From NCBI GenBank assembly GCA_018818885.1, contig JAHIRB010000035.1, forward strand, positions 1-55,995: 55,995 nucleotides of DNA. The letters run 5' to 3'. The notes under the pieces were generated by a model. It ran no database searches, had not been told where the DNA came from, and saw only the letters and a program-made list of their open reading frames with translations. The translations under genes were made by a program, and so were the position numbers. This stretch comes from Patescibacteria group bacterium. Its GTDB lineage: Bacteria > Patescibacteriota > Patescibacteriia > Buchananbacterales > SURF-54. Shown piece after piece: positions 16,549-30,908 of the stretch; the stretch's first letter is position 1, and the number at the start of each line of letters is the position of its first letter.

Positions 16549-17469
16549 ATGAATAAAAAGTCAAATAAAAAAGTAATAGTCATTTTAGGTCCAACAGCAT
16601 CTGGTAAAACAAAACTGGCTGTTAAATTAGCCAGCAAGTTTAATGGTGAAATAATTTCCGCAGATTCACGGCAAGTTTATGTTGATATGGATATTGGAAC
16701 AGGAAAAGATTTAGCAGAATATATAGTCAAGGTACAAGGTACAAGGTACAAGGTACCATATCATTTAATTGATGTCGTTTCGCCTAAATCTCAGTTTACG
16801 GTAGGTGTGTATCAAAAATTAGCCAACATAGCTATCCAGGATGTCATAAAACGTCAAAAATTGCCCATTATATGCGGTGGAACTGCTTTTTATATTCAGT
16901 CAATAGTAGATGGTATTGTATTGCCTCCTAAGACTTCAAGTCAGTTACGTCAAAAATTGAATAAGCTGACATTGAAGCAGCTATTAGTTAAATTGAAAAA
17001 ACTTGACTCAGCATCATATCGTCAAATAGACAAAAAGAACAGAAGGCGAGTGCAGCGTGCAGTTGAGGTGTGCTTGTATACAAGTGAAAAATTTTCATCA
17101 TTTGGCCAAAAACAAAAAATAGACTATGAGTTTTTGATCTTAGGATTAACTTGGCCAAGAGAAGTTTTGAAAAAAAGAAGCACCAAGAGACTAAAAGTCA
17201 GGCTTGAAAAAGAAGGTATGATCAATGAGGTTAAAAGATTGCATAAACAAGGAGTCAGTTGGAAAAGAATGGATGAGTTTGGCTTGGAATATCGCTGGGT
17301 TTCTAGATATCTTCAAAAGAAAATCACATATGACGAAATGTTTGAAGGTTTGAATAATGATATTAATAATTTTGCTAAAAGGCAGATGACGTGGTTTAAA
17401 AAAGATAAGAGGATTAAGTGGGTGAAGAATTATAAATCAGCAAAAAAATTAGTAAAGGAATTTTTATAG
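16549..17469 (+). CDS. miaA: tRNA dimethylallyltransferase
   Basis: GPTASGKT, IISADSRQVY, GGTAFY, AKRQMTWF. Confidence 0.97.
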   Translation: MNKKSNKKVIVILGPTASGKTKLAVKLASKFNGEIISADSRQVYVDMDIGTGKDLAEYIVKVQGTRYKVPYHLIDVVSPKSQFTVGVYQKLANIAIQDVIKRQKLPIICGGTAFYIQSIVDGIVLPPKTSSQLRQKLNKLTLKQLLVKLKKLDSASYRQIDKKNRRRVQRAVEVCLYTSEKFSSFGQKQKIDYEFLILGLTWPREVLKKRSTKRLKVRLEKEGMINEVKRLHKQGVSWKRMDEFGLEYRWVSRYLQKKITYDEMFEGLNNDINNFAKRQMTWFKKDKRIKWVKNYKSAKKLVKEFL

Positions 17470-18276
17470 CGGGCTTTTAATTTTTTTAAGCCGAGGATTG
17501 GTTACCTGTGTATATATTTGAGTGGTTCTGATATTTTGATGGCCAAGCAATTCCTGTACGTAGCGCACGTCAACGCCGTTTTCCAACAGGTGAGTGGCAA
17601 AACTATGGCGCAAACTGTGAAAGGTCGCGTTTTTTTTGATGTTTGCTTTTTTTAACGAATTAGCAAACACTTTTTGTGCGGTTCTTTCTGTAAGTTTGCC
17701 CCCACGCTCACTTGAAAAGATATAGTCATTTTTATCTTTTCCAGCAATAAGATTTTGAAGGTCAATTTTTAATTTTTCAGGCATAATGGTAATTCTGTCC
17801 TTTTTTCCCTTAGCTTGCCTGATGTGAATTGTTAGCTCCAAAAGGTCAAGATCTTGTATCTTAAGATTGATAATTTCGCTTACCCTTAAGCCTGATCCAT
17901 AAGCTAAAGATAAAAGCAGTTTATGTTTGTTATTAGTTGTAACTTCAATAATTTTTTTAATTTCATTTCTTGATAAAACAACAGGCAAGAATTTATTTCT
18001 CTTAGCTATTCTTATCTGAATTGGGGTGAAGGATTTGGCGACGTCACGATAATAAAATTTAATCGCATTCAAATAAAGATTCCGCGTCTGGACCGAGATA
18101 GCCTTTTCTTCAGCATAAAGCAGGAAGTTTTTGATATTTTCCTCATCTAATTTTTCTAAGCCACTTTGCTTAAAGGTAAAATATTCTTTTAAGCCATAAA
18201 CATAGCTTTTTATGGTTTTTTGGCTAAAATTGCGTATTTTTAATTCACGCTTTACTTTCTCTAGTTCTTTTTGCAT
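17464..18276 (-). CDS. IntI-like tyrosine recombinase lacking the IntI-specific insertion
   Basis: N-terminal SAM-like domain (RNFSQKTIKSY); catalytic R (GLRVSE), K (KGKKDR), HSLRH, LGH, Y (TTQIY); C-terminal SPL; 3' end overlaps miaA by 6 nt. Confidence 0.93.
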   Translation of the reverse strand: MQKELEKVKRELKIRNFSQKTIKSYVYGLKEYFTFKQSGLEKLDEENIKNFLLYAEEKAISVQTRNLYLNAIKFYYRDVAKSFTPIQIRIAKRNKFLPVVLSRNEIKKIIEVTTNNKHKLLLSLAYGSGLRVSEIINLKIQDLDLLELTIHIRQAKGKKDRITIMPEKLKIDLQNLIAGKDKNDYIFSSERGGKLTERTAQKVFANSLKKANIKKNATFHSLRHSFATHLLENGVDVRYVQELLGHQNIRTTQIYTQVTNPRLKKIKSPL

Positions 18277-18299: not shown

Positions 18300-18321
18300 T
18301 ATGATAGTTAATAGTATCAAT

Positions 18322-18350
18322 ACCTTATCATAAGTTCGCATAACATACAA
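18322..18350 (-). promoter_or_regulatory. candidate Pint integrase promoter
   Basis: minus strand TTGTAT-17-TAAGGT with TGn extension. Confidence 0.4.
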
Positions 18351-18373
18351 TATTACGGTTATTATACGAAAAC

Positions 18374-18402
18374 ACTTCGTATAATAACGAGTTATATGAA
18401 AT
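18374..18402 (+). other. attI-like primary recombination site
   Basis: ACTTCGTATAA-TAACGAG-TTATATGAAAT (11-7-11, arms 9/11 symmetric); GTTATATGA matches TCATATAAC at the end of cassette 1; crossover inferred at G18391|T. Confidence 0.8.
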
Positions 18403-18438
18403 AATTTATCAAAATTTTAGTTTTTAATATTTTGCATC

Positions 18439-19587
18439 ATGAAAATCAGAACAATAACAACTGGCGTGTCGCTTCAATCACCTGACATTGAAGATCAAAT
18501 TAGGCAAACTGCTGAATTCAATCAGAAAGCCAAAGAAGTATTTGAAAAAGCAGGTTATGAAGTACAAACAACCAGAATAGCCACTAATTGCTGGGAAGAA
18601 TATCTTGGTAGTCTTTCAGACGCAGAAATTGTAAGTGCGATTCAAAAAATAGAACAAATTTGCCAAAGCCTCGACGTGAGTTTTTTCAATATGGGCTACG
18701 CAAAAACGCCTGATAAAATAAAACTCATCCCTGAATTTAATAAAGTTACATCTCAAATTTCATGCTCCGCCAAAATCGGCGACAAGGACAGTGGAATAGA
18801 TTTTGAAAATACCAAAATAGCAGCTCAAGTTATCAAACGAATTGCAGAGGAAACCGAAAACGGTTACGGCAATTTTAGATTCTGCGCCTCCGCAAATTGT
18901 AAGCCAGGCATTCCGTTCTTTCCAACCGGCTTTCACGAGGGAGAAACCGCTTTCGGTATTGGCTTGGAGTGCGGAGACTTAGCCGTGAAGGCATTTTCAA
19001 AATCAAGCAATCTCATAGAAGCAGAGCAAAACCTAAAAGCAATATTTGAAGAAGAAACTAAGAAAGTCGCCGATTTGGCTCAACAGATTTCAAAAGACTT
19101 TGGCATTGGCTATAACGGTATTGATGCTTCACTAAATCCAGGACTTGAAGAGCATGAAAGTATTGCTTTTGCGTTTGAAAAACTCGGCTTTGGCAAATTT
19201 GGAAATCAAGGAACACTTACAATTTCTGCTTTGGTCACTCGTGTACTCAAAGGTTTGTCAGTTAAGATATGTGGCTATTCTGGTCTTATGCTCCCAGTAT
19301 GCGAAGACCTTGGACTTGCAACAAGAGCAAATGAAGCTACTTACGGCATTACTAACCTGCTTTTATATTCAGCAGTTTGTGGTGTTGGTTTAGACACAGT
19401 TCCAATTCCAGGCGACACGCCAGCAGAAAAGATTGAAGCGACACTTCTCGATATGGCGACTTTAGCAATTAAGTTAGATAAACCATTATCAGCTCGTTTA
19501 TTCCCAGTTCCAGGCAAAAAAGCAGGAGAAATGACAGATTTCAAGTCACCATATCTCGTAGACTGCAAAATATTAAAAATTGAATAA
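18439..19587 (+). CDS. cassette 1: DUF711-family protein
   Basis: MKIRTIT start, PGIPFFP, G.SGLMLPV.ED, SAVCGVGLDTVP.PG. Confidence 0.8.
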   Translation: MKIRTITTGVSLQSPDIEDQIRQTAEFNQKAKEVFEKAGYEVQTTRIATNCWEEYLGSLSDAEIVSAIQKIEQICQSLDVSFFNMGYAKTPDKIKLIPEFNKVTSQISCSAKIGDKDSGIDFENTKIAAQVIKRIAEETENGYGNFRFCASANCKPGIPFFPTGFHEGETAFGIGLECGDLAVKAFSKSSNLIEAEQNLKAIFEEETKKVADLAQQISKDFGIGYNGIDASLNPGLEEHESIAFAFEKLGFGKFGNQGTLTISALVTRVLKGLSVKICGYSGLMLPVCEDLGLATRANEATYGITNLLLYSAVCGVGLDTVPIPGDTPAEKIEATLLDMATLAIKLDKPLSARLFPVPGKKAGEMTDFKSPYLVDCKILKIE

Positions 19588-19608
19588 AAAATTTTGATAA
19601 ATTACATC

Positions 19609-20526
19609 ATATAACACGGCATAGCCGGTTCGCTCGCTAAATAAAATCATTTTTTTACCACTCATATATGAAAGACGTTATACAATTCATAAAACCGAGA
19701 ATCGTGAAGGTCACTTGCCCAGGTCTCGATTCAAAAGGAACAGGGTTTCTAATATCAGAGGATGGTCACATAGCGACAAATTTCCACGTTATTGGGCAAG
19801 TTGACCAAAACGGACGCGTCAATTATGCAAAACAAATTATTGTCTCAAATTCTATTATTGAAGATGTAGAAGCCAATATTGTTCACAATGTTAAGGATAC
19901 CGCGTCCGTTTTGCACGATTACTCTATAATTAAAATCGACAAAAATGGCCTAGATTATTTTGAGTTAGGTGAAGGAGCAGATGTAGAAGAGGGAGATGAA
20001 GTTTACTTTGGTGGATTCCCAATAACTCAAAATAATCTCACCTCTCATAAAGGGCATGTATCTTCATTACGTGAAGCACCAACGCGTTTTGGTACTGATC
20101 TTCAAAAAGTTATTGATATTGACGGTACCGTTGTTGGCGGTAATTCAGGTGGCCCTTTATTATTCAAAAAGGACGGCAAACACTTAGTCGTTGGAATCAT
20201 TAGTCAACAAGTAGCATACTTATCAGAGGCCTTTCAACATCTAGAGCAATTTCTAAAAGTACAGATGACAAATCCAAATTCAGGAGGTGTTTTTATTGGT
20301 GGGGTTAATCCAAATGCCGCCCTTTTTGAAACTATCAAAACGCTTAAAACTAACTTATCTACCGGTATCGGAACGGCCATTTTTGTCGATTATATGAAGA
20401 CGGAATTTGAGGAAATAAAAAAATGATTTTATTTTTAACGCTCGCTCACCCAAATTTGGCAGTGGTGGGTCGCGTTTGCTCCCAATTTTACCACTGCCAA
20501 ACTTCGGCTATGCCGAAACGTTGTGC
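19609..20526 (+). other. attC-like site 1 (918 bp, carries a gene)
   Basis: ATATAAC-A-CGGCATAGCCG ... CGGCTATGCCG-AAAC-GTTGTGC. Confidence 0.85.
19668..20426 (+). CDS. trypsin-like serine protease inside attC1
   Basis: GTGF, TNFHV (His), DYS (Asp), GGNSGGP (Ser). Confidence 0.9.
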   Translation: MKDVIQFIKPRIVKVTCPGLDSKGTGFLISEDGHIATNFHVIGQVDQNGRVNYAKQIIVSNSIIEDVEANIVHNVKDTASVLHDYSIIKIDKNGLDYFELGEGADVEEGDEVYFGGFPITQNNLTSHKGHVSSLREAPTRFGTDLQKVIDIDGTVVGGNSGGPLLFKKDGKHLVVGIISQQVAYLSEAFQHLEQFLKVQMTNPNSGGVFIGGVNPNAALFETIKTLKTNLSTGIGTAIFVDYMKTEFEEIKK

Positions 20527-20558
20527 GAAATTCGCCAGCAATTTAACTAATAAAACAG

Positions 20559-21068
20559 ATGTCGGAAATTTTTGAAATTAAAGAAAGCGGCAGTTTGGGC
20601 CGAGGATTATTCGCCACAAAGCTAATAAAAAAAGGCGAGAAAATTTTAGAATTCACGGGTCCAATTATCTCTATCAAGGAGGCACTGCAAAAACCACCAG
20701 AAAAATTATCATGCCCTTTGCAAATCGGGCCGACCGAATATATAGACATACAAGAACCTGGCGTTTTAGCTAATCATTCTTGCTCGCCAAATGCTGGCGT
20801 AAAAAATGATCATTACCTTGTGGCTATCCAAGACATCTTACCTGGCAATGAAATTTTTTATGATTATTCAACGACAATGGATGAAGATAATTGGACCCTA
20901 GAATGTAAATGCGGAAGCCCAAACTGCCGCCACATCATAGGAGATTTCCGACATCTTCCGATCGAAGTTCAAAAAAAATATTTAGAATTAAATATAGTCC
21001 AGTCCTTTATTGCGAAAAAATTGCTGGCGAACATCGCACAACACGGCATATCCGGCTCAGAAAATTGA
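20559..21068 (+). CDS. cassette 2: SET-domain protein with post-SET motif
   Basis: GRGLFA, ANHSCSPN, EIFYDY, CKCGSPNCR. Confidence 0.92.
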   Translation: MSEIFEIKESGSLGRGLFATKLIKKGEKILEFTGPIISIKEALQKPPEKLSCPLQIGPTEYIDIQEPGVLANHSCSPNAGVKNDHYLVAIQDILPGNEIFYDYSTTMDEDNWTLECKCGSPNCRHIIGDFRHLPIEVQKKYLELNIVQSFIAKKLLANIAQHGISGSEN

Positions 21069-21164
21069 CACAATTAAATTTAAAAGGGGTGTCAATTTTC
21101 TTCGACCCAAATTTTTGTTCCGCTACGCTACACAAAACCTTCGGATAATGCCGATACGTTATAC
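21036..21164 (+). other. attC-like site 2
   Basis: GCACAAC-A-CGGCATATCCG ... CGGATAATGCCG-ATAC-GTTATAC. Confidence 0.85.
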
Positions 21165-21229
21165 GACATTGCCCTTCGCCCGCCTAGAATGTAAACTTTT
21201 ATATATTTAGCAAATCTTTTCAAATTATT

Positions 21230-22081
21230 ATGATTAAAACCAAAGTCCTAAAGAAGATAAGCCAACAACAACTGGATAAAAAACTAAAGCTCAATATAGA
21301 GAATAAATATGTTGAGGGAGAACAATGGTTCAAAAATCCAGAATTATGGTATGAATTAACAGCTTTTTCAAATCCTTACATAACTGTTTACTCTGAACTT
21401 GTTCTGTTAATTCAAAATCTGAATAAAATTTCTGGATTTTTATCTGACAAAGCTTTAGTTTTTTATGGTCTTGGCACAGGAGATACAGAAATTATTTTAG
21501 TCAATTCTATACTTCAAAAAGAAAAAGTTGTTGATGTTGTTGGCTTAGAAATACAAGCACAATTTATCGATGGATTTATTCAATCCCTTCAAAATATCGC
21601 CCTTGAAAATGATGAATATGAAATAAACTTTTTGGGTATTCATGGATTATTTCAAGATACAAAAAAAGAATATTTGAAAATTAACAATAAAAAACAAGCT
21701 CACATAATTTTAGGAAATACTATAGGTAATTTTAAAGAAGAAGAAATTTTTCAAATCTTCAATAACTTGATGAACAAGGGCGATATTTTACTCGCAGGAT
21801 TTCAAACAGATGAAAACATGAATAAAGTTTTCAAGCAATATTCAGAGAATAAAATGTTTAACAATTTCATTAGAAAAACAATCCCAAATTGCGATGAACT
21901 AAAATGGAAGATCAATCAAGAAGAATCGCAAATTGAAGCATGGAGTGGTGACGTGCTTGTTTTTCATTCAAAAAAGAAAAATCCTGCGAGTATGATAAAT
22001 TGTGTCAAGGACTTTGGTTTTAAAAAGTTGTATAGTACAAACGATACTAATTCTTGTATTCAGATATTTGAAAAGATTTGA
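21230..22081 (+). CDS. cassette 3: SAM-dependent methyltransferase, EgtD-like
   Basis: YGLGTGD motif I; LGNTIGNF; GD.LL.GF. Confidence 0.7.
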   Translation: MIKTKVLKKISQQQLDKKLKLNIENKYVEGEQWFKNPELWYELTAFSNPYITVYSELVLLIQNLNKISGFLSDKALVFYGLGTGDTEIILVNSILQKEKVVDVVGLEIQAQFIDGFIQSLQNIALENDEYEINFLGIHGLFQDTKKEYLKINNKKQAHIILGNTIGNFKEEEIFQIFNNLMNKGDILLAGFQTDENMNKVFKQYSENKMFNNFIRKTIPNCDELKWKINQEESQIEAWSGDVLVFHSKKKNPASMINCVKDFGFKKLYSTNDTNSCIQIFEKI

Positions 22082-22144
22082 ACGGCGGGCTACGGGCAAC
22101 GCTTCGGGGACGCTGCGCTTTCGTCGCTATCGCTCCTCACCCTC

Positions 22145-22240
22145 GTATAACAAGGATTATGAGGAAAATGGCTCAGCTCGCCATTTTCCCAAATTTGCTC
22201 CACTGCGTTCCGCAAACTTCTCATAATCCTGACGTTATCG
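22145..22240 (+). other. attC-like site 3 (shortest, 96 bp)
   Basis: GTATAAC-A-AGGATTATGAG ... CTCATAATCCT-GAC-GTTATCG. Confidence 0.88.
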
Positions 22241-22259
22241 GAAATAATTTTAGGCTCTT

Positions 22260-22694
22260 ATGAACGAAGAACAATCAAAAAAAATTATGAGGCTTGCTAT
22301 TGAGGAGGCAAAGAAATCCTCAGAACCACTGAAGTGTGGTGTTGTCATTGTTAAGAATGAAGAGGTGATTGCGAAAACATACAACTCTCAGCGAGAATCA
22401 AAAAATTCTTCAGCCCATGCTGAAATAAAAGCTTTAGGAGTGGCTGGACAGATAGTGGACAATAAAAATCTTGATGGTTGCGACATTTTTTGTACTTGTG
22501 AACCGTGTATTATGTGTGTTTCCGCAATCACTTTTGCAAAAATTAGGCGTCTTTATTATGGGATTTCTTTGTCTGACGTTTCACCGAAAGATAAACGAAT
22601 AGATATCAGTATTGATGAATTTTTCCAAAAATCGCCTCATAAATTCGAAGTGATAAAGAATTTTTTAGAAGAAGAATGCAAGGTACTAATTTGA
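22260..22694 (+). CDS. cassette 4: zinc-dependent nucleoside deaminase
   Basis: HAE and PCIMC zinc motifs. Confidence 0.92.
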   Translation: MNEEQSKKIMRLAIEEAKKSSEPLKCGVVIVKNEEVIAKTYNSQRESKNSSAHAEIKALGVAGQIVDNKNLDGCDIFCTCEPCIMCVSAITFAKIRRLYYGISLSDVSPKDKRIDISIDEFFQKSPHKFEVIKNFLEEECKVLI

Positions 22695-22711
22695 TCGCCT
22701 AAAATTACATC

Positions 22712-22851
22712 CGATAACAGCGTGTATGAGGTTCAAAAAAAGTGCGTTAATAATACCTAAAGGCTGCACTTTTTCTTTCACCCAAATTTCGCCTCCTATA
22801 TAATTAAAATAAGGAAGTCGGCGAAACTTCTCATACACGCAAACGTTAGGC
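22712..22851 (+). other. attC-like site 4
   Basis: CGATAAC-A-GCGTGTATGAG ... CTCATACACGC-AAAC-GTTAGGC. Confidence 0.9.
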
Positions 22852-22879
22852 GAAATAAGATTTAAACAAAAATTATTTT

Positions 22880-23149
22880 ATGGCAACAAAACCTTGGACA
22901 AGAAATCAAAAAATTGCTGTATGGGGGGTTATAGCCGTAATCATTATGGGTGTACTCGGATGGTTTATTAAAATAGATTTAGAAATATCTTATATACAAA
23001 GTCAAATTGAACAAATTCAGATAGATAAAGCGAACATAAAATCATTAGTTGTTGATGAATTTTTAAAAACCTGCCCACCAGGAACAACTACTTCGACTAT
23101 TGAATTTGTCGATGAAGGAATTAAATTTGGATGTATAATCCCAGAATAA
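22880..23149 (+). CDS. cassette 5: single-TM hypothetical protein
   Basis: 89-aa ORF filling the cassette. Confidence 0.75.
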   Translation: MATKPWTRNQKIAVWGVIAVIIMGVLGWFIKIDLEISYIQSQIEQIQIDKANIKSLVVDEFLKTCPPGTTTSTIEFVDEGIKFGCIIPE

Positions 23150-23190
23150 TTTTTGTTTAAATCTTACTCTCCGCTCCGCCCTATCGGGTC

Positions 23191-23733
23191 GCCTAACACG
23201 GGCTAGCCGGTTCGCAGTATGCACTTTGAAACAAACATTTTTAGGAAGCTGCCCAAATCAACCAAAGGAGGCCTACTATGATTTTGGGATTAACAAAAGA
23301 AGATTTAGAGAAACCAACAATTACAGAGGTAGAAGAAGTTCGCGTACATGACGGAAGGGGGGGTGCTGCCACAGTACGAGTCGGCGATCAAGTTGAAGTT
23401 TTCAAACCAGAAGAAAATAAATTGACTCTGGCCTATCTCGGCCCCGGGCCATACACTATTGAATGGACGGCGCAATGGAGATGTGGCCGAGATTTCCTTC
23501 AACTGACAACGCCGACAAAAGGTAAGGGCAAAGGCGTTAACGCTTCCAAATTTCAAATCGTCTCATAGTTTCATTATGGACGCACAAAAACGGGAAGGCA
23601 TACTTTCGCCTTCCCGCTTCCTAAAAATGTTTGTTTATTTATCACGCTCACCCAAATCCCACACCTATTTTAGTAAATTTCAAATAATAGCACAAAATAT
23701 GTGAGGGACTTCGGCTAGCCCGAAACGTTATGT
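23191..23733 (+). other. attC-like site 5 (543 bp, carries a gene)
   Basis: GCCTAAC-A-CGGGCTAGCCG ... CGGCTAGCCCG-AAAC-GTTATGT. Confidence 0.88.
23278..23568 (+). CDS. hypothetical protein inside attC5
   Basis: AAGGAGG SD; enclosed by a perfect 21-bp IR (23229-23249/23616-23636). Confidence 0.8.
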   Translation: MILGLTKEDLEKPTITEVEEVRVHDGRGGAATVRVGDQVEVFKPEENKLTLAYLGPGPYTIEWTAQWRCGRDFLQLTTPTKGKGKGVNASKFQIVS

Positions 23734-23770
23734 GAAATTTATTTTTGTTTTTATCTAATAAACACGTAAT

Positions 23771-24202
23771 ATGAATAAATCTTTTTCTCTTTTTCTCGAA
23801 CAACTAAAAAAACTTAATCTACCAAAAGGCAAATTCGCTATTTTCGGAAGTGGCCCCCTGGGTATAAGAAATATCAGAGACACCCATGATCTTGATCTTA
23901 TTGTAGATGAATCGCTTTTTGACGAGTATAAAAATATGCCGAGCTGGGAGTTTAAAAGTTTTGACAGAGATGATCGTCATGTTGAGATGATTGAAAATAG
24001 CGGAATTGAGTTCTACAAAACATGGGGGCCGGGCGATTGGGATACTCGCCAGTTAATTGATAATGCGGAAATTATTGATAATTTGCCTTTTGTAAAATTA
24101 GAGGAAGTAAAAAAGTGGAAGAAAATATCAGGAAGAGAAAAAGATTTAAAAGATGTCCAACTAATAAACGAGTATTTGGAAAAGTCACAAAAACAAAAAT
24201 AA
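23771..24202 (+). CDS. cassette 6: putative minimal nucleotidyltransferase-fold protein
   Basis: FGSGPL...DTHDLDL (GS plus DxD). Confidence 0.6.
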   Translation: MNKSFSLFLEQLKKLNLPKGKFAIFGSGPLGIRNIRDTHDLDLIVDESLFDEYKNMPSWEFKSFDRDDRHVEMIENSGIEFYKTWGPGDWDTRQLIDNAEIIDNLPFVKLEEVKKWKKISGREKDLKDVQLINEYLEKSQKQK

Positions 24203-24207
24203 ACATC

Positions 24208-24337
24208 ACATAACAAAGAGTATGCGGTTCAGGAATTTTTCATTTATAATTTAATAAGGAGTAAAAAATTCCTTCACCCAAATTTTTTGTTCCGCTATCG
24301 CTACACAAAAAACTTCGCATACTCTTAAACGTTATGT
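24208..24337 (+). other. attC-like site 6
   Basis: ACATAAC-A-AAGAGTATGCG ... CGCATACTCTT-AAAC-GTTATGT. Confidence 0.9.
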
Positions 24338-24435
24338 GAAATATTGACTAGATTATTCTGGCATAAAATGTTTTTGCCGATAAAAAAGTCAGTGCGATTT
24401 TAAAACTGATAATCAAATAATTCCGTCAATACATC
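24332..24435 (+). other. cassette 7 body: no ORF
   Basis: ~100 bp between TTATGTGA and TCACATAA, bounded by TATTGAC/GTCAATA. Confidence 0.8.
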
Positions 24436-24585
24436 ACATAACACTGTGTATCTGGTTCCGTAAAAGAGAAAAATTAAATAATTCTCTATTTTTAAAAAGC
24501 CCTTTTTCAATTTTTTTTGACAAAGAAAAAACCGCCTCAACCTTTGTGGTATATTGGCGGTAAGCAGTCGGTCTGCTCAGTCCTT

Positions 24586-24762
24586 TTACTTTGTGCGAAA
24601 GAGCGGGCAAATCAGGTCGTGAAATTCTTTCAGTGATTCGTTCAACATGGTATGCCAAACGAATATTCCAACCTCGCGCTCTTTCAAAAGAGCAACCAAC
24701 TTTTCCGCCCTTTCCTGCAACGCGTCATGCGTAAGTTCTGTTTTTTGCTCGTTTTCAGCCAT
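24586..24762 (-). CDS. 58-aa hypothetical protein inside attC7 (below the ORF-track cutoff)
   Basis: MAENEQKTELTHDALQERAEKLVALLKEREVGIFVWHTMLNESLKEFHDLICPLFRTK; GAAAGGAG SD, own promoter, terminator ACCGCC/GGCGGT. Confidence 0.75.
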   Translation of the reverse strand: MAENEQKTELTHDALQERAEKLVALLKEREVGIFVWHTMLNESLKEFHDLICPLFRTK

Positions 24763-24820
24763 TTCTACTTCTCCTTTCAGGTTAGTTGGTAATATTTAAT
24801 ACCAAATTTGGTATCGTTGC

Positions 24821-24849
24821 ATTGTAGCAGAAAACTGTCCCTCTGTCAA
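24821..24849 (-). promoter_or_regulatory. promoter of antisense module in attC7
   Basis: TTGACA-17-TACAAT with TGn extension. Confidence 0.85.
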
Positions 24850-25033
24850 GTCCAGCGACCAAAAAAAATTGAAAAAGGGCTTTAATAAGGTAAATTATTT
24901 AATTTTTCTTTTTTACTCCACCCAAATTTTTGCCTTTCCTTTCTTTTAGAATATAATAAGGAAGAAAGGCAAAAACTTCAGATACACAGAAACGTTAGGC
25001 GAAATTAATTTATTAACCTTTAATCAAAATCAT

Positions 25034-25249
25034 ATGGAAAAATTTGAAAGAGCTCCACAAGAGCCACAATCAACGGAAGAGGCAGTATCACGTTTTCTTG
25101 ACGGAGATAATAATGCCGCAGTGTCTTTTTTGCGAAATCACCGCGATGAAATCGGTGAATTCTGTTTACAAATCCGCGACACATACCAAAAAAATGACAC
25201 TGCGACTCCTTTTTTGGAATTGGCAAAGTTAATTGATTCGTTGCTATAA
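25034..25249 (+). CDS. cassette 8: hypothetical protein
   Basis: 71-aa ORF filling the cassette. Confidence 0.7.
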   Translation: MEKFERAPQEPQSTEEAVSRFLDGDNNAAVSFLRNHRDEIGEFCLQIRDTYQKNDTATPFLELAKLIDSLL

Positions 25250-25270
25250 ACGGTTAATAAATTAACTATC

Positions 25271-25411
25271 GCCTAACAGCGTGTATGAGGTTCAAGAAAA
25301 AGTGCGTTAATAATTTTCAGCGGTTGCACTTTTTCTTTCACCCAAATTTCGCCTCCTCTATAATGAAAATAAGGAAGTCGGCGAAACTTCTCATACACGC
25401 AAACGTTATGT
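25271..25411 (+). other. attC-like site 8 (near-copy of site 4)
   Basis: GCCTAAC-A-GCGTGTATGAG ... CTCATACACGC-AAAC-GTTATGT. Confidence 0.9.
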
Positions 25412-25523
25412 GAAATAGCCAGAAATTTTTTTATTATTTTTTAGATTTTTTTTGGCAATTTATTTCGGTCGAACATAGCTTGTGATATAATTTAATCAGC
25501 TTAATAATTTAACCAATAAAATT

Positions 25524-25802
25524 ATGAAAAACCCAGAAATGAGTCCTGAGCAACCAAAAAAGTGGGAAACTCTAACCACTGAGCAAATAATTGAGAGGAT
25601 AAAATCAAACTCTGAAGCACAAGAAAAAGCTTTTGGTAGTGTTCTTACTGAAGAACAGTTTAAAGAAAGATTTCCTCATAATTCAGCAAAAGTCGAAGAT
25701 ATTCAAAATATGATGCTAGCGTTAGGGTTAGAGCTTCCCACTCAAGAAGATGTAGAGCAAATGATGCAACAAGGCGAAGAAAATGATCAGGAAGAAAAAT
25801 AA
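25524..25802 (+). CDS. cassette 9: acidic hypothetical protein
   Basis: 92-aa ORF; TGnTATAAT upstream. Confidence 0.75.
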   Translation: MKNPEMSPEQPKKWETLTTEQIIERIKSNSEAQEKAFGSVLTEEQFKERFPHNSAKVEDIQNMMLALGLELPTQEDVEQMMQQGEENDQEEK

Positions 25803-25846
25803 ATTGCCAAAAAATACATTAAGGAAAAGAAATTTCTGTCTACATC

Positions 25847-26350
25847 ACATAACATGTTGTATCTGGCTACGCTAAATAATAATTTATTTTCTCTACTTAT
25901 ATGGGTATCAAAGTTGAATTTAACCCCGACCTCGCTTTAAGGAATATTTCCGAATTTAAAAACGGTAATCGTAAAATTGAAGAATGTATTCCTGAAAGCC
26001 TTGAGGAAGGCAAAACATATCCGTTTTTAAAATGCGATCAACGTAATTACTGGCTTTATGGTGCAATACCTTTAATCGAAACCAAAGGCAATGAGATTTT
26101 ATCACGTCCTAAGGCTAAAATTATTCTGCTGGAAGCCACGCACTTTGCTGTTGATAACGTAACGTATACTAAAGGCTTTTACAAAGTAATTGAGGTCTTT
26201 AAGGATGACGATATACATTTTGAATGTTTTGATCCGGTGGGAACGAGAAAATAAATTATTATTTAGCTCCGCCCAAATTTCTTCTTCTTTTTTATTATTA
26301 ATTTAATAATGAAGCGAAGAAGAAACTTCAGATACAACAAAACGTTATGT
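25847..26350 (+). other. attC-like site 9 (504 bp, carries a gene)
   Basis: ACATAAC-A-TGTTGTATCTG ... CAGATACAACA-AAAC-GTTATGT. Confidence 0.88.
25901..26254 (+). CDS. hypothetical protein inside attC9
   Basis: 117-aa ORF enclosed by a perfect 23-bp IR (25871-25893/26245-26267). Confidence 0.8.
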   Translation: MGIKVEFNPDLALRNISEFKNGNRKIEECIPESLEEGKTYPFLKCDQRNYWLYGAIPLIETKGNEILSRPKAKIILLEATHFAVDNVTYTKGFYKVIEVFKDDDIHFECFDPVGTRK

Positions 26351-26383
26351 GAAAAACAATAAATTCATAATAACATATAAATA

Positions 26384-27034
26384 ATGGGGTTCAATAAAAA
26401 GGAAGTTAATAAACTATTAGCATCTTGCCACAGAAGATGCTGCATTTGCCATAAATTCTGCGGGGTCAAAATGGAAACTGATCATATCGAACAAAAATTC
26501 ATCTCGCAGAATGATTCTATTGAAAATGCAATTCCAGTCTGTTTTGAATGTCATGCCGAAATCCATCTTTATAATGACAAACATCCACGTGGCAGAAAAT
26601 TTTCATCCGAAGAGTTGCATGAGCATAAGCGTCAATGGCTGGAAATATGCGAAAAAAATCCTGAGATGTTTATTCAACCACTCCAAAGAAGTGATGTAGG
26701 TCCTCTTCAGTCGTTGGCAGATGAACTAAAATTCAATGTAGCTATCAAACAGTATCAAGATTCTAATGTTGGATATTTCTGTCCTTTTGAGGTTAAGCAG
26801 TTTGACAGATCATTAAATGATGGCTATATCTCTATATTAAATGATAGTTTAGCAGATTCCTTAACTAACACTTATATTCAAATTAAATTGGCAAATACAG
26901 CACTCAATGCTATTACTTCGGCGCCTTGTGAAAGAGATCGAGGATTAGCCAAAAATAGACTCCAAGATGTATTAAGAATAATGGGTACAAAGATTGATGA
27001 AACTTATAAATTGCTTAAAAATCAATTAGAGTGA
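26384..27034 (+). CDS. cassette 10: HNH endonuclease domain protein
   Basis: CCIC...DHI...N.I.VCFECH..IH. Confidence 0.85.
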   Translation: MGFNKKEVNKLLASCHRRCCICHKFCGVKMETDHIEQKFISQNDSIENAIPVCFECHAEIHLYNDKHPRGRKFSSEELHEHKRQWLEICEKNPEMFIQPLQRSDVGPLQSLADELKFNVAIKQYQDSNVGYFCPFEVKQFDRSLNDGYISILNDSLADSLTNTYIQIKLANTALNAITSAPCERDRGLAKNRLQDVLRIMGTKIDETYKLLKNQLE

Positions 27035-27100
27035 ATTTATTGTTCTTCGCCTAACACGGGTTAGCCGGTTCACGCTGGCTAAATAAAATTATTCAATATT

Positions 27101-27676
27101 ATGAAAACTATTATAAAATTAATAAATCTAGCGGCCCTACTTGGGTCAGTTGCATGGCTATCCAAAGATACTAATTGGGAACCATTACTATTATTTCTTG
27201 CCTTATTAGCCGCATTCTTAGGGCAGGAAATCTTACCAACAATTAAAAAAGTGAACAAAGAAGACAAAAAGCTAGGAGAATTATTTCTTAAAGAATTCCC
27301 CTCAAACGGTAAAAGTTGCTTATTTTTAAAAGAACATGAGCTACACAATCCATTCCGCCAATCACAACTTGATGAAATTGAAAAATTCTTAAGTGAATGG
27401 GATAACACCGAACATGAGTTCTTAAATAAAAAATTAGAAAGAATAAAAAAAGAACTACTCTCTAAAATTAATAAATTTTTATCTTCGTTGTTTACTTTGG
27501 TAAGAGCCCATGATAGTGATGTTAATATATTAACAACCAAGCTAAGCGGGGCGTACAATAAAGAGGTAGAAGAAGAAAATGATTTAAAAATAGCTGGACT
27601 AAACAAAATGGCAACTGATATATATAAAAAACATCAAATACTAACAAAAAAGATAAAAAGAATCTTAAATTCTTAG
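27101..27676 (+). CDS. N-terminally membrane-anchored hypothetical protein inside attC10
   Basis: 191 aa, two N-terminal hydrophobic segments; 20-bp IR 27081-27100/27679-27698. Confidence 0.8.
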   Translation: MKTIIKLINLAALLGSVAWLSKDTNWEPLLLFLALLAAFLGQEILPTIKKVNKEDKKLGELFLKEFPSNGKSCLFLKEHELHNPFRQSQLDEIEKFLSEWDNTEHEFLNKKLERIKKELLSKINKFLSSLFTLVRAHDSDVNILTTKLSGAYNKEVEEENDLKIAGLNKMATDIYKKHQILTKKIKRILNS

Positions 27677-27729
27677 CTAATATTGAATAATTTTATTTTT
27701 AACGCTTGCTAATAAAATAATTTAAAAAT

Positions 27730-28023
27730 ATGGAAAATCAAATATTTAAAAAATTTACCTTATGGGATTCAGTAGTTTTACTGGTTTTAATACTTATTGC
27801 TATACCATCAATACTTGGAGTATTAGAAGCTGTAACTGGTCAAGACTATTATCAAATGACGGTTTATCTTTTTATATCGGCTATAATCTTGTTTGGAATT
27901 TTCAAATATTCAAAAAAGTTGGTGAGCAATATAAAAAATGCAGAAACTAAAAAAAGAGCAACTATAATATCAGCAGTATTGATAATCATTACCCTGCTAT
28001 TCTTTTTCAGACTATTTTTTTAA
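27730..28023 (+). CDS. 3-TM hypothetical protein inside attC10
   Basis: 97 aa; 18-bp IR 27711-27728/28017-28034. Confidence 0.75.
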   Translation: MENQIFKKFTLWDSVVLLVLILIAIPSILGVLEAVTGQDYYQMTVYLFISAIILFGIFKYSKKLVSNIKNAETKKRATIISAVLIIITLLFFFRLFF

Positions 28024-28217
28024 ATTATTTTATTTAACGCGCTCACCCAAATCCCGCCATGGGCGGGACTTCGGCTAACCCGAAACGTTAGGTAACATTT
28101 TATTCAAAATCTTTTAAATTTAATAATAGAGCCCTTTTGAAATTTTTTAAGAAAAAAGAAAGGGCTCCGCTCACTATTTTTAGTGGGGAGCCCTGATGAG
28201 CGGAGGACGCACGACAG

Positions 28218-28655
28218 TCACTTGAGGCGCGAGACTGCCTCGACGCCACTCATAGTTCTGCCAGTGGCGCAATCCATCACGAAGCTGCCGACTGACGACC
28301 CCGCCTTGATCATGGCGAGCCACTGGTCGTAGGTCGCCGTCGCGTACGGTCCGGCCGAGGCCTTGTTGTCGGCGAGCCAGCGTGCGAGCGCTTCGGGCGT
28401 TTCCATCACAGGCGAGATTGGTGTCCCTTCCGTGACGGACTCATACATCTGGTAGTGCGTGCGTTCCGACTCCGGCCACTGCGGCATGACGTCGCATCCG
28501 TAGTTCGGCGGGTCGTTGTTGAGCCAGCCGTCACGTAGTCCCTCCACAATCTCTTCCTCGTCGTACGGGAAGTGCTCGTGCATGGGGATGTGGTGGCCGT
28601 TCTCGTCCTTGGGGTGTTCCCAGTTTGCGGGAACTCTGCGAGCTTCTGTACTCAT
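28218..28655 (-). CDS. cassette 11: antisense, GC-rich hypothetical protein
   Basis: 145 aa; GAGGAGG SD; 42/60 and 38/60 G+C in two lines counted; GGGCTCC/GGAGCCC terminator. Confidence 0.85.
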   Translation of the reverse strand: MSTEARRVPANWEHPKDENGHHIPMHEHFPYDEEEIVEGLRDGWLNNDPPNYGCDVMPQWPESERTHYQMYESVTEGTPISPVMETPEALARWLADNKASAGPYATATYDQWLAMIKAGSSVGSFVMDCATGRTMSGVEAVSRLK

Positions 28656-28717
28656 GGCTTTGTCCTCCTCTTTGGTTGTTTTATGTGCAATTTAACGCCA
28701 AAATTAGCGTTCATATT

Positions 28718-28746
28718 AGTATAGCATAAAACTGATAACCTGTCAA
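28718..28746 (-). promoter_or_regulatory. promoter of antisense module in cassette 11
   Basis: TTGACA-17-TATACT with TGn extension. Confidence 0.85.
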
Positions 28747-28807
28747 GCTCGCGACCAAAAAAATTTCAAAAAGGCTCTAATAATAAGGTATTTTTGAATA
28801 AAACATC

Positions 28808-29253
28808 ACCTAACACCTGCTATCTGACTCCGCCTTTCGATAAATAATTTTTAACCACTTAATATGGAAACTTTAGAAAACTTTATAGAAAAACTTGACG
28901 AAAAAACTGAGATTGAAATAGCAAACTTTTTAAATGCAAGCCAAGATTCAAAAAGAGATTCAATAAAAGCTATTTTAGATTCTAGAATTATAAAAAATTT
29001 ACAGCAACTAACTAAAACAATCGAAGAAAATAACATAAAAACAGAAAACTATAATACTACACTAACTAAACTTACAAAATGGATTTTTATATTTACAGTT
29101 GTGATGACTATTGCAACAATAATCAGTTTATTCAAAGGTTAAAAATTATTTATCGGGCGTCGCGCAAATTGCTCATTCGCTTACGTGATGACCTCCAGTT
29201 AATTATATCACGACGCGAATTTCGCAACTTCAGATAGCAGGGTAACGTTATGT
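28808..29253 (+). other. attC-like site 11 (446 bp, carries a gene)
   Basis: ACCTAAC-A-CCTGCTATCTG ... CAGATAGCAGG-GTAAC-GTTATGT. Confidence 0.82.
28864..29142 (+). CDS. coiled-coil protein with C-terminal TM, inside attC11
   Basis: 92 aa; perfect 19-bp IR 28838-28856/29137-29155. Confidence 0.78.
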   Translation: METLENFIEKLDEKTEIEIANFLNASQDSKRDSIKAILDSRIIKNLQQLTKTIEENNIKTENYNTTLTKLTKWIFIFTVVMTIATIISLFKG

Positions 29254-29307
29254 GATGTTTGGCTTTTACTTAGTACAATTAATAATTTATAATTTAATAA
29301 AACCATT

Positions 29308-29469
29308 ATGAACAAAACAACAAAAATCACATTACTTATTATTGCTGGTTTATTAGTGTTTAACGGATTAATCAATATTTCCGACAATGGAGGAGTTTTA
29401 GCCTATGACATTGCTTCCATTTTATCTGGAATTGGATTTATTGTTGTTGCTCTATCTAAGAAAGCATAA
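29308..29469 (+). CDS. cassette 12: 53-aa 2-TM protein (below the ORF-track cutoff)
   Basis: MNKTTKITLLIIAGLLVFNGLINISDNGGVLAYDIASILSGIGFIVVALSKKA; fills the cassette. Confidence 0.75.
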   Translation: MNKTTKITLLIIAGLLVFNGLINISDNGGVLAYDIASILSGIGFIVVALSKKA

Positions 29470-29481
29470 AAGCCGAACATC

Positions 29482-29678
29482 ACATAACAGCGTGTATCTG
29501 GTTACGGAAAATTGGCGTTAATTAAATCCTTAAGGAATGCCAATTTTCCTCCGCCCAAATTTTCATCCCTTTACAAGATGAGGATTTGGGTGGGGTTCTG
29601 TTAAAAAGTGTCGTCTGATAATCAAAATTTAACCTATTTAATCGGGATGAAAACTTCAGATACACGCGAACGTTATAT
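29482..29678 (+). other. attC-like site 12
   Basis: ACATAAC-A-GCGTGTATCTG ... CAGATACACGC-GAAC-GTTATAT. Confidence 0.88.
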
Positions 29679-29698
29679 GAAATAATAATTTTATTTTT

Positions 29699-30169
29699 AT
29701 GTCAGATAAAATAAACAAATGCCTAGATGATTTAAGATATGCTTATAAATGTAACGTGCCTTTGGGATAAGTACTCGAATCATATAGTTTTTACGCTGAT
29801 CCTAAATATGTCACAATAGAAACTTACAAAAATTTTTGCGTGTTTGTTTATAAAACGGATATTGATAACGAGGGAATTTTAAAAAAAGCTAAAAAATATC
29901 CCGATTACGAAACTTATATAAGTGACAAAAGTAGTTTTGCAAAATTTTTTATTGAACGCGGTCCAAGATTAGATACGCCCAAAAAGAAACGAATTAAAAA
30001 ATATACTACCTATTCAGCGCATGGACATTTCCAAACCAATAATCCTATTTCTGCTTTTTTAAACTTCATAGCGATGTTGCCCGCTTATATATTAATGATG
30101 ACTATCGCCGGAATCGCAAAGATTTTTGTAAGTTTCTTTGACCTGTTCAAATCTAACAAAGAAAAATAA
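29699..30169 (+). pseudogene. cassette 13 gene with in-frame TAA at codon 24
   Basis: ATG 29699 is in frame with ORF 29840; single TAA at 29768-29770, frame otherwise open. Confidence 0.65.
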
Positions 30170-30251
30170 AATTATTACATCGTATAACACGGCGTATACG
30201 ACATTTGTTTATCCACTAAAACCCGGGGGAGTCGTTCGCGAACGGCTTCTC

Positions 30252-30300
30252 TTGACAAAAATAATCAGGCTGATATAATTGTAATACAATGTATTACAAT
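30252..30300 (+). promoter_or_regulatory. TA promoter and operator
   Basis: TTGACA-16-TGnTATAAT followed by palindrome ATTGTAATACA-A-TGTATTACAAT (30278-30300). Confidence 0.85.
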
Positions 30301-30312
30301 TAATCTATTTCT

Positions 30313-30528
30313 ATGAGACAAGTAATTAACATCTCCTTACCTAAACAAACAGCCCATGAAGTCAAATCTGCCGTTAAAAGAGGCAATTATCTCAGCGTCA
30401 GTGAGTTTTTTCGTGATTTATTAAGAGATTGGCAGGCAGGTAATCTTCTTAATGAATTAAACCAAAGTAGAAAAGAAATTAAAGCGGGCAAGGGCAAAAC
30501 CTTAAAATCCTTAAAGGATTTAAGGTAA
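30313..30528 (+). CDS. ribbon-helix-helix antitoxin (ParD/CopG-like)
   Basis: VINISLP...G.Y.SVSEFFRDLLR; upstream of RelE-like toxin. Confidence 0.85.
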   Translation: MRQVINISLPKQTAHEVKSAVKRGNYLSVSEFFRDLLRDWQAGNLLNELNQSRKEIKAGKGKTLKSLKDLR

Positions 30529-30534
30529 TTTTTT

Positions 30535-30792
30535 ATGGAAATTATTTATTCCTCAAAGTTTGCCCGTGAATATAAGAAACTGCCAAAAAAAGTAAAGGCA
30601 ACGGCGGAAGAGCACGAAACAATATTCAGACAGAACCCCCGAGATCCAAGATTAAACACGCACAAACTTCATGGCAGACTTAAAGAATTCTGGTCTTTTT
30701 CAATCGGGAACAAATACCGAATTATTTTTGAATTTGGCAATGACACTACAATTTGCTTGCATTTAGTCGGCAATCATGATATTTACCAATAA
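30535..30792 (+). CDS. RelE-superfamily mRNA interferase toxin (YafQ/YoeB-like)
   Basis: YSSKFAREYKKL, HKLHGRLKEFWSFSI, YRIIF, VGNHDIY. Confidence 0.9.
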   Translation: MEIIYSSKFAREYKKLPKKVKATAEEHETIFRQNPRDPRLNTHKLHGRLKEFWSFSIGNKYRIIFEFGNDTTICLHLVGNHDIYQ

Positions 30793-30908
30793 ACAAACGT
30801 CGCATACGCTGGAACGTTAGGCGAACTTTATATGATCCTGATGTTATGCAATTACATAATTTAACACGAAAAAAGAATTTTTAGAATGTAGATTATAATC
30901 TAGAAATT

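Follow-up and report, generated by a model that had tools for sequence, protein, structure and literature searches.

Whole genes within attC-like recombination sites: a probable integron-like cassette array in a Patescibacteria chromosome

Sedentary chromosomal integrons, such as the Vibrio cholerae superintegron with its VCR sites, place a divergent tyrosine recombinase gene beside an attI site and a row of mostly one-gene, same-orientation, promoterless cassettes, toxin-antitoxin cassettes included; their attC sites have RYYYAAC...GTTRRRY ends, a crossover at G↓TT (the arrow marks the crossover), inner boxes that vary in sequence and conserve structure, and a bottom-strand bias, and they come in types common to many different genes. 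All of these traits have counterparts in the stretch of DNA analysed here in full (hereafter the window), the 55,995-nucleotide contig JAHIRB010000035.1 of the Patescibacteria group bacterium assembly GCA_018818885.1, where an array of 13 cassettes occupies 18.3-30.8 kb, with every site on the + strand, from 19.6 to 30.8 kb. Unlike chromosomal integrons, however, this locus has a recombinase without the I2 insert, sites that branch into three-way or higher junctions with a conserved CACCCAAA, a perfect 11-bp L stem, a 3-nt bulge between L' and R', R stems that run to 22-31-bp private repeats, and sites of 0.4-1 kb that contain whole genes. Judging from sequence, we consider it probable, at roughly two chances in three, that the locus is a chromosomal integron-like array of an ultra-small bacterium of the Candidate Phyla Radiation (CPR)/Patescibacteria, composed of attC-like sites with gene-bearing branches, an accessory I2-less recombinase and a dif-like attI. 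A first-pass annotation of this DNA had called it an integron with whole genes nested inside attC sites, a label that fits the array as integron-like but not as canonical, given the missing I2, the three-way junctions and an L stem without extrahelical bases. The literature that we searched yielded no description of integron-like arrays in CPR bacteria or of genes inside attC.

Sites were called by the right-arm motif only, CTT-N11-(A)AAC-GTT, and share a common plan that reads R''(..TAAC)-A-[11-mer]-GTTC-[hairpin 1]-(T)CACCCAAA-[hairpin 2]-CTT-[11-mer complement]-AAAC-G↓TT (Table 1). AAC and GTT are present in 13/13 sites, and in 11/13 the 11-mer has an exact reverse complement upstream, preceded by AAC-A, where the chance expectation for an 11-mer complement inside 1.1 kb is ~3e-4 per site. 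Exact complementarity had initially been claimed for every pair of arms and holds for these eleven, the arms of site 2 containing one bulged base and those of site 13 two mismatches in 13; the 11-mers differ between sites, as also claimed, except that sites 4 and 8 have GCGTGTATGAG in common. AAC-to-GTT lengths fall into two groups, 88-189 nt (sites 2, 3, 4, 6, 8 and 12) versus 438-1037 nt (sites 1, 5, 7, 9, 10, 11 and 13), which reproduces the earlier division into six short and seven long sites with lengths shifted by ~8 nt through the definition of the arms. Classical attC sites measure ~57-141 bp and have extrahelical bases in the L box, an unpaired central spacer and one variable terminal hairpin. 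With respect to attC anatomy, the R'' RYYYAAC and R' GTTRRRY ends and the paired, variable L''/L' boxes are all present, but the L stem lacks extrahelical bases, an A/AAAC bulge replaces them in the plan, the distal part is branched and includes CACCCAAA, and the size range extends over 88-1037 nt.

Within the seven long sites we located the nine open reading frames (ORFs) that had been reported there. In sites 1, 5, 7, 9, 10 and 11 the insert stands in place of hairpin 1, between GTTC-like and CACCC-like motifs, whereas site 13, already singled out as the exception, has neither a CACCC motif nor hairpin 2, its arms continuing instead into a 21-bp stem over the toxin-antitoxin pair. Pfam matches among the nested ORFs are confined to a trypsin-like peptidase (site 1) and an RHH + RelE pair (site 13), the other nested proteins being small, without family match and, in several cases, endowed with membrane-like segments. 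Purifying selection acts on the nested genes, five orthologous pairs giving dN/dS values of 0.07-0.26. Their private closing stems (19-50 bp) are longer than those of gene-less hairpins, differ gene by gene and end exactly at start and stop codons; in site 1 the stem covers 19 bp (19639-19657 with 20416-20434), and in site 10 the two tandem genes meet at a TTAAC-GCTTG-CTAA joint, the stem of the first measuring 21 bp.

The regular genes between the sites are arranged along similar lines. Of the 13 regular cassettes, ten or eleven have private inverted repeats, 22-31 bp long, which always start at GTT and show a constant 2-nt mismatch at positions 10-11; in cassette 1 the repeat (GTTATATGAAATAATTTATCAAAATTTT) begins at the GTT of attI, with its complement at 19585-19615. 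Because these private repeats invariably begin at GTT, we set the limits of the cassettes at G↓TT, the position known from integrons, and the regular genes would therefore likewise be closed by a long stem in a circular cassette. Of the two alternating cargo slots proposed initially, the between-site and inside-site positions both stand, but cargo also occupies hairpin 2 in two related loci (L020 and L172), and the sealing of regular cassettes by private repeats makes the two positions more alike than a division into site versus cargo would imply.

All six short sites fold, with DNA parameters, into a three-way junction made of the R stem, the 11-bp L stem and two hairpins, and the minimum-energy folds of all seven long sites retain the arm pairing together with a private closing stem, so that the folding check suggested by the first-pass annotation came out in its favour for both site groups. 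For comparative analysis we assembled 253 sites from ~200 related loci (numbered with an L), of which 80 were anchored on homologues of the recombinase and ~120 were retrieved by scanning metagenomes for a single left-arm pattern; the scan was aimed at the CGGNNTAGCCG class, and the sample is enriched for that class. Hairpin 2, which was not used for detection, was aligned as the 12 bases after CCC and the 12 before the right arm (83 distinct sequences). Its stem cells are paired in 83.6% of cases versus 54% in shuffles, its covariation score is 0.698 versus 0.156 for shuffles (0/500 reach it) and 0.09-0.13 when the partners are slid by 1-3 columns, and 10/12 pairs show changes on both sides, as in the compensatory exchange of AAA...CTT for ATA...CAT. 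At one position the top strand presents an A.C mismatch in 74/83 sequences, which on the bottom strand is a G.T pair. Furthermore, the bottom strand is the more stable in 144/159 distinct short sites (mean 2.7 kcal/mol, p = 2e-22), and among 72 closing stems of nested genes it is favoured 46 to 23 (p = 7e-4), with G.T pairs at 41 versus 15. The hairpin-2 covariation and the strand bias therefore argue that a single-stranded bottom-strand fold is under selection, and the closing stems, having the same bias, belong to the same folded strand as the site; a sense RNA would bear the less favourable top-strand sequence.

Table 1. Coordinates of the recombinase gene, the attI-like site, cassette 1 and the 13 attC-like sites in the window.
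Feature	Coordinates	Strand	G of GTT	AAC-to-GTT length (nt)	Content	Match or basis
IntI-like tyrosine recombinase	17464..18276	-			270 aa, without I2 insert	Pfam Phage_integrase PF00589 1e-44
attI-like site	18330..18401	+			minimal hairpin GTTATTATACG/CGTATAATAAC and dif-like core ACTTCGTATAA-TAACGAG-TTATATGAAAT; presumed crossover G↓TT at 18391	sequence reading
Cassette 1	18391..19615	+			DUF711 gene 18439-19587; 28-bp private inverted repeat	Pfam DUF711 1e-105
Site 1 (long)	19609..20526	+	20520	910	arms CGGCATAGCCG/CGGCTATGCCG; hairpin 1 is a 252-aa trypsin-like peptidase gene 19668-20426; hairpin 2 20455-20501	
Site 2 (short)	21036..21164	+	21158	120	one bulged base in L stem	
Site 3 (short)	22145..22240	+	22234	88		
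Site 4 (short)	22712..22851	+	22845	132	11-mer and hairpins as in site 8	
Site 5 (long)	23191..23733	+	23727	535	hairpin 1 is a 96-aa gene 23278-23568; 20-bp stem 23229-23248 with 23617-23636	
Site 6 (short)	24208..24337	+	24331	122		
Site 7 (long)	24436..25000	+	24994	557	hairpin 1 is an antisense 58-aa gene 24586-24762 (-), own promoter-like end; two 24-bp stems	
Site 8 (short)	25271..25411	+	25405	133		
Site 9 (long)	25847..26350	+	26344	496	hairpin 1 is a 117-aa gene 25901-26254; 23-bp stem	
Site 10 (long)	27049..28093	+	28087	1037	tandem genes 27101-27676 and 27730-28023 in hairpin-1 place, each with own inverted repeat	
Site 11 (long)	28808..29253	+	29247	438	hairpin 1 is a 92-aa gene 28864-29142; 19-bp stem	
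Site 12 (short)	29482..29678	+	29672	189	gene-less, extra hairpins	
Site 13 (long, last)	30182..30822	+	30816	633	RHH antitoxin 30313-30528 and RelE/ParE-like toxin 30535-30792	Pfam

The layout with genes inside sites recurs in dozens of unrelated metagenome contigs. Among the 80 anchored loci, the 42 exact short sites (in 27 loci) are all oriented divergently to the recombinase, and long sites account for 9/51 exact sites (~18%), an apparent long site of L008 having been left out for its repeated 11-mer; the same long-site anatomy is found in L020, L023, L028, L042, L057 and L058. Across 183 exact sites we counted 84 distinct 11-mers (consensus NNGNNTATNNG). Hairpin-1 length is bimodal (113 at <=80 nt, 71 at >=200 nt and 3 between), and gene-bearing hairpins concentrate in the CGGNNTAGCCG class, to which sites 1, 5 and 10 belong: 56/62 sites with an arm ending in TAGCCG, nearly all of them of this class, are gene-bearing (~90%), as compared with 5/43 in the TATGCG class and 0/14 in the TATGAG class. 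Such a proportion, seen across many samples, is hard to square with accidents, and it thus bears on the unlikely alternative that the long sites are dead, inactivated by insertions that fused neighbouring cassettes, with the inserts kept as useful and the arm matches as leftovers. Loops of 0.3-1 kb should indeed fold poorly, two-class or decayed arms occur in L090, L098, L171, L111, L135 and L170, and site 13, with its toxin-antitoxin pair, is the last of the array. However, the arms are exact in 6/7 long sites here, 46 left arms that the metagenome scan gave in a CPR context are matched by a right arm at <=1 mismatch, the stems of hairpins 1 and 2 show compensatory changes between site 1 and L069 despite their differing genes, and the closing stems share the bottom-strand bias.

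DNA inserted inside attC has been described before in the form of IS1111-attC elements and group IIC-attC introns, which encode a DEDD transposase or, next to intron RNA domains, a reverse transcriptase, and have family-wide ends; the present inserts differ in carrying ordinary cargo, in their private stems and in their position at a structural branch. No mobility gene (transposase or reverse transcriptase) was found by Pfam among the nine nested ORFs, and no Rfam family was matched over 17-32 kb at E <= 0.1, hence no group II intron RNA, in agreement with the earlier statement that the cargoes encode no mobility proteins. Chance insertion of such attC-targeting elements, or of small non-autonomous transposons of the terminal-inverted-repeat or miniature (MITE-like) kind, therefore appears very improbable to us: each insert does bear terminal inverted repeats and identical hexamers flank some of them, but the repeats are private rather than family-wide, co-vary with the gene and reach its start and stop codons, target duplication is inconsistent (12 direct, 13 inverted and 23 neither among 48), and the inserts without exception occupy a hairpin branch of the junction.

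A formal parallel is offered by the pdif modules of Acinetobacter plasmids, which are acted on by XerC/XerD and resemble this array in having two alternating gene positions bounded by inverse dif-like sequences, independent assortment and no mobility gene in the module. By analogy, each arm could be a complete double-stranded dif-like site, alternately inverted and recombining without folding, with left halves of the form 11-6-11 (for example ACATCACATAA-CAAAGA-GTATGCGGTTC) and right halves of the form 11-9-11 delimiting two kinds of module. The half-sites do read as dif-like, the enzyme is without I2 and scores as XerA-like, the core of attI has the dif-like form 11-7-11, and units of a site plus its nested gene are met with different genes on either side. 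Duplex recombination nevertheless strikes us as decidedly unlikely, for it leaves unexplained the exact complements within each pair of arms alongside 84 11-mer variants between sites, the covariation of hairpin 2, the one-strand G.T bias, the conserved A/AAAC bulge and the constant 2-nt mismatch of the R stem; it also needs a 9-bp spacer in the right halves, the nested genes hold one orientation though inverted sites should flip them, and they assort apart from hairpin 2, which would put exchange points inside the supposed module. pdif sites are, moreover, plain 28-bp 11-6-11 duplexes (XerC-6-XerD) with no sign of intrastrand pairing and reside on plasmids, whereas the present array is chromosomal, adjoins its own dedicated recombinase in CPR bacteria and has covarying halves, strand-biased wobble pairs and structured hairpins.

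The recombinase gene adjoins the array and is divergent from it, being encoded on the - strand as against + for the array. The protein scores 225 bits against the NCBIfam XerA/integron-integrase model (cut-off 220) and 223 bits, in two stretches, against the integron-integrase model TIGR02249, under its cut-off of 265. The best relative of solved structure is VchIntIA (2A3V), an integron integrase from Vibrio, to which it aligns in two blocks (query residues 7-178 and 194-270); between query 178/IntI4 182 and query 194/IntI4 241, some 43 residues within IntI4 183-240, the region of the I2 helix, are absent. The catalytic R, K, HxxR, H and Y motifs are all seen in the alignment. The tyrosine-recombinase core and the divergent gene beside the array thus agree with what defines an integron, and the IntI-specific additional domain (I2 helix) near patch III is missing. 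Homologues occur in 36/301 genomes sampled across the phylum (12%), and the genome encodes two other recombinases, on contigs C19 and C20, with best scores to XerD/XerC; on account of this sporadic occurrence and of the separate XerC/D-like pair, we regard the array-borne enzyme as accessory and reject a role as the housekeeping Xer recombinase of a chromosomal dif. According to PMC7790495, the I2 helix made possible the transition from recombining double strands to recombining single strands, canonical integrases needing the helix for folded sites. CTX-phi and other dif-integrating elements, however, present an I2-less Xer-type enzyme acting on a dif-mimicking hairpin and a dif-like target, so the recombination of a folded strand by Xer proteins indicates that I2 is not strictly required for folded substrates. 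Those are single phage genomes that rely on housekeeping XerCD, as opposed to a multi-cassette array with a dedicated accessory recombinase. A further dif-like stretch, AGTTCGCATAA-CATACA-ATATTACGGTT (window 18300-18345), is found just 5' of the attI-like hairpin; its left arm matches the E. coli XerC arm at 9/11 bases.

Comparison of related loci reveals that genes and site frames are combined in a modular fashion. The frame of site 1 (arms, hairpin-1 stem and hairpin 2) is ~93% identical to that of L069, with compensatory changes in both hairpin stems, although the nested genes and the upstream cassettes are unrelated, and the same frame houses further different genes in L100, L106 and L114; the frame of site 7 is ~93% identical to that of L057, with differing interiors. 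As to the comparison of related genomes proposed earlier, for the same attC with and without cargo, no such pair emerged from the 253 sites. Conversely, one nested gene is found with differing hairpin-2 alleles, arms and neighbours (L088/L100, L094/L113/L167 and L124/L185), one hairpin-2 allele accompanies differing nested genes, and in L172 a homologue of the site 11 gene, with a related stem/inverted repeat, is placed at hairpin 2 of another site. Tandem gene pairs in one position occur in site 10 and in L167. Among homologue pairs, nested-nested matches (31/7381) exceed nested-regular ones (2/27206), a difference that is suggestive at most in a sample biased to one site class.

In the CGGNNTAGCCG class the boundaries of the nested genes follow a consensus, GGTTC-GC[TC/GA]GC-CTAAATAAAAT...TTT(TTAAC)-GCTCGC-TCACCC, that is strong in 48 nested genes and includes TTAAC before the right hexamer in 18/48. 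Around these 48 genes the flanking hexamers form a direct repeat in 12 cases and an inverted repeat in 13, the other 23 cases showing neither arrangement. GCTCGC flanks were considered as a target duplication or a crossover core, a proposal weakened by direct, inverted and other arrangements being about equally frequent. GCTCGC on both sides forms tandem G.A pairs in the bottom strand.

Such boundaries raise the possibility of second-tier cassettes, in which a gene with its private inverted repeat would itself be mobile at a mini-site in hairpin 1, through the same or another recombinase, in the arrangement GGTTC-GCNNGC↓CTAAAT..gene..TTTTTAAC↓GCTCGC-TCACCC, whose ends mimic R' (G↓CTAAAT versus G↓TTRRRY) and R'' (TTTTAAC). 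We hold this to be doubtful, if the least remote of the alternatives. Pointing towards it are the boundary consensus, the recurrence of a nested gene in different frames and of a hairpin-2 allele with different nested genes, the presence of one gene family in hairpin 1 and hairpin 2, the tandems, the tendency of nested homologues to recur nested and hardly ever regular, and the two-class arms of some sites, which look as if crossover had taken place at the right boundary of the nested gene. The distribution of the hexamers, however, fits the base of a hairpin, closed by Watson-Crick or bottom-strand tandem G.A pairs, better than a crossover core; nested genes of other classes abut GGTTC and TCACCC without the motif (L042, L023 and L058), and the tandem joint of L167 is likewise devoid of it; homologous recombination in the conserved frame segments of 20-45 bp could yield the same shuffling; an empty GGTTC-GCTCGC-TCACCC site was not found among the collected sites; and enrichment for one site class inflates the pairs of nested homologues. 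A recursive version, similarly tentative, has the side hairpins arise from modules of a gene plus its stem (G↓CTAAAT...TTTTAAC↓G), which the I2-less recombinase would insert, stack in tandem and exchange at the folded attC junction. If so, one array would shuffle genes at two nested levels, and the gene-less hairpins of apparently empty sites would be vacant slots or remains.

We therefore return to the integron-like array with gene-bearing site branches as the preferred model, in which cassettes would be delimited at G↓TT and each would end in an attC-like site. The site would act as a single strand, preferably the bottom (-) strand, folded into a short R stem, a bulge with A opposite AAAC, the 11-bp L stem and a junction bearing two or more side hairpins parted by CACCCAAA. 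The recombinase would act on such folds, the R and L stems beside the junction probably being sufficient; if it needs these stems only, the size of a side hairpin would be free as long as its closing stem is stable, and long sites may still recombine. A nested gene would then ride with its cassette, so that a single excision at G↓TT could move two or three genes. Capture of a gene into a hairpin loop would be a rare event, after which selection for folding may favour lengthening of the stem inward until it reaches the start and stop codons, with template-switch 'palindrome correction' as a possible route; inward growth of this kind would account for stems that are private, end at codons and exceed those of gene-less hairpins. 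By the same logic, the long R stems of regular cassettes would turn a circular single strand into a dumbbell with two genes as its two loops. A copy of the site 5 gene in L040, 74% identical, lies outside any site and keeps its leader and terminator without an inverted repeat; because the homology includes the left repeat copy, it points to the gene's own leader as the probable source of the right copy.

Several points weigh against this model. The fold requires 0.3-1 kb to be single-stranded at once, each half-site is readable as a duplex dif-like site, and the I2 helix is missing from the enzyme. The bulge is on the L'-R' side, the opposite arm to that of the extrahelical bases of canonical attC. 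In L090, L098 and L171 the right arm is of another class and could not fold with the left one, and the combination of a nested gene and its site frame is met with different upstream genes, so that a rule by which a gene moves with its downstream site is insufficient alone. Pairs with the same flanks and different site length were, among the 253 sites, repeated-11-mer artefacts alone, and a search for close relatives of the genome returned at best 71% nucleotide identity, over the recombinase alone. An identical-protein look-up with the DUF711 cassette protein, aimed at sister strains, gave no record.

Some variants and units of the array deserve separate mention. In site 12 an extra hairpin arises from pairing of a CCCAAAT motif with a downstream ATTTGGG, and the number of branches at the junction accordingly varies. 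In some sites of L089/L143 and L102 only 5-9 nt separate the left half-site from an arm of the R' type (GGTTCGCTCGAAGC-GTTATATGAAAT and GGTTCGCGGAC-GTTAGCGGAAAT); such sites have neither hairpins nor a right 11-mer and may be minimal or rearranged. Two antisense units of the window (24455-24925 and 28087-28815) have homologous outer parts (AGCCCTTTTTCAATTTTTT... and ...GCGACCAAAAAAAATTGAAAAAGGGCT, with promoter-/operator-like palindromes) and different genes, of 58 aa inside site 7 and of 145 aa in a regular cassette position; their homologous ends therefore mark them as one kind of unit found in both positions, and similar ends occur in L057, L065, L038 and L036. The 145-aa unit has a high G+C content (~46% over 28-29 kb versus 34% overall). 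Lipoprotein-type signal peptides or transmembrane segments are common in nested small proteins (L088, L100, L167 and window 27101-28023 and 28864-29142), the L167 protein MKKLLLLIIPILFLSGCS being one example, and a second nested trypsin-like protease is found at L104:7515.

The window has a G+C content of ~34%, and exact sites in the 1.35-Mb genome, both strands considered, are confined to this array and contig C14, three more matches with arms >1.9 kb apart looking like chance. Contig C14 (3.6 kb, same assembly) holds at least two further sites of the array type and one cassette at 2700-3624, so either the array is larger than the window shows or a second array exists. Gene orientation switches near 19-31 kb, from the + strand left of the array to the - strand right of it; the cumulative GC skew has its maximum at ~27-28 kb and the AT skew its change of sign at ~31 kb. 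The array thus sits where gene orientation and skew converge, possibly at the replication terminus, in which case the bottom strands would be on the leading-strand template.

The system appears to work in an integron-like manner, yet it does so without two defining features of integrons, namely the I2 domain and the canonical anatomy and size of attC, and its nested genes are the most unusual trait. Integron sites are usually viewed as hairpins of ~60-140 nt after a gene, whereas here complete genes reside inside the site; if the long sites recombine, two or three genes would travel per excision and the site would be a modular scaffold rather than a fixed signal. These arrays offer a natural test of integron origin and of the minimal needs of a folded site, and the private stems that reach the codons, together with an ordinary chromosomal homologue of one nested gene, may record the birth of cassettes, a long-open question. 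We expect that classical attC models and integrase models requiring I2 would probably miss this family, and, if so, the gene pools of CPR cassettes are likely under-counted.

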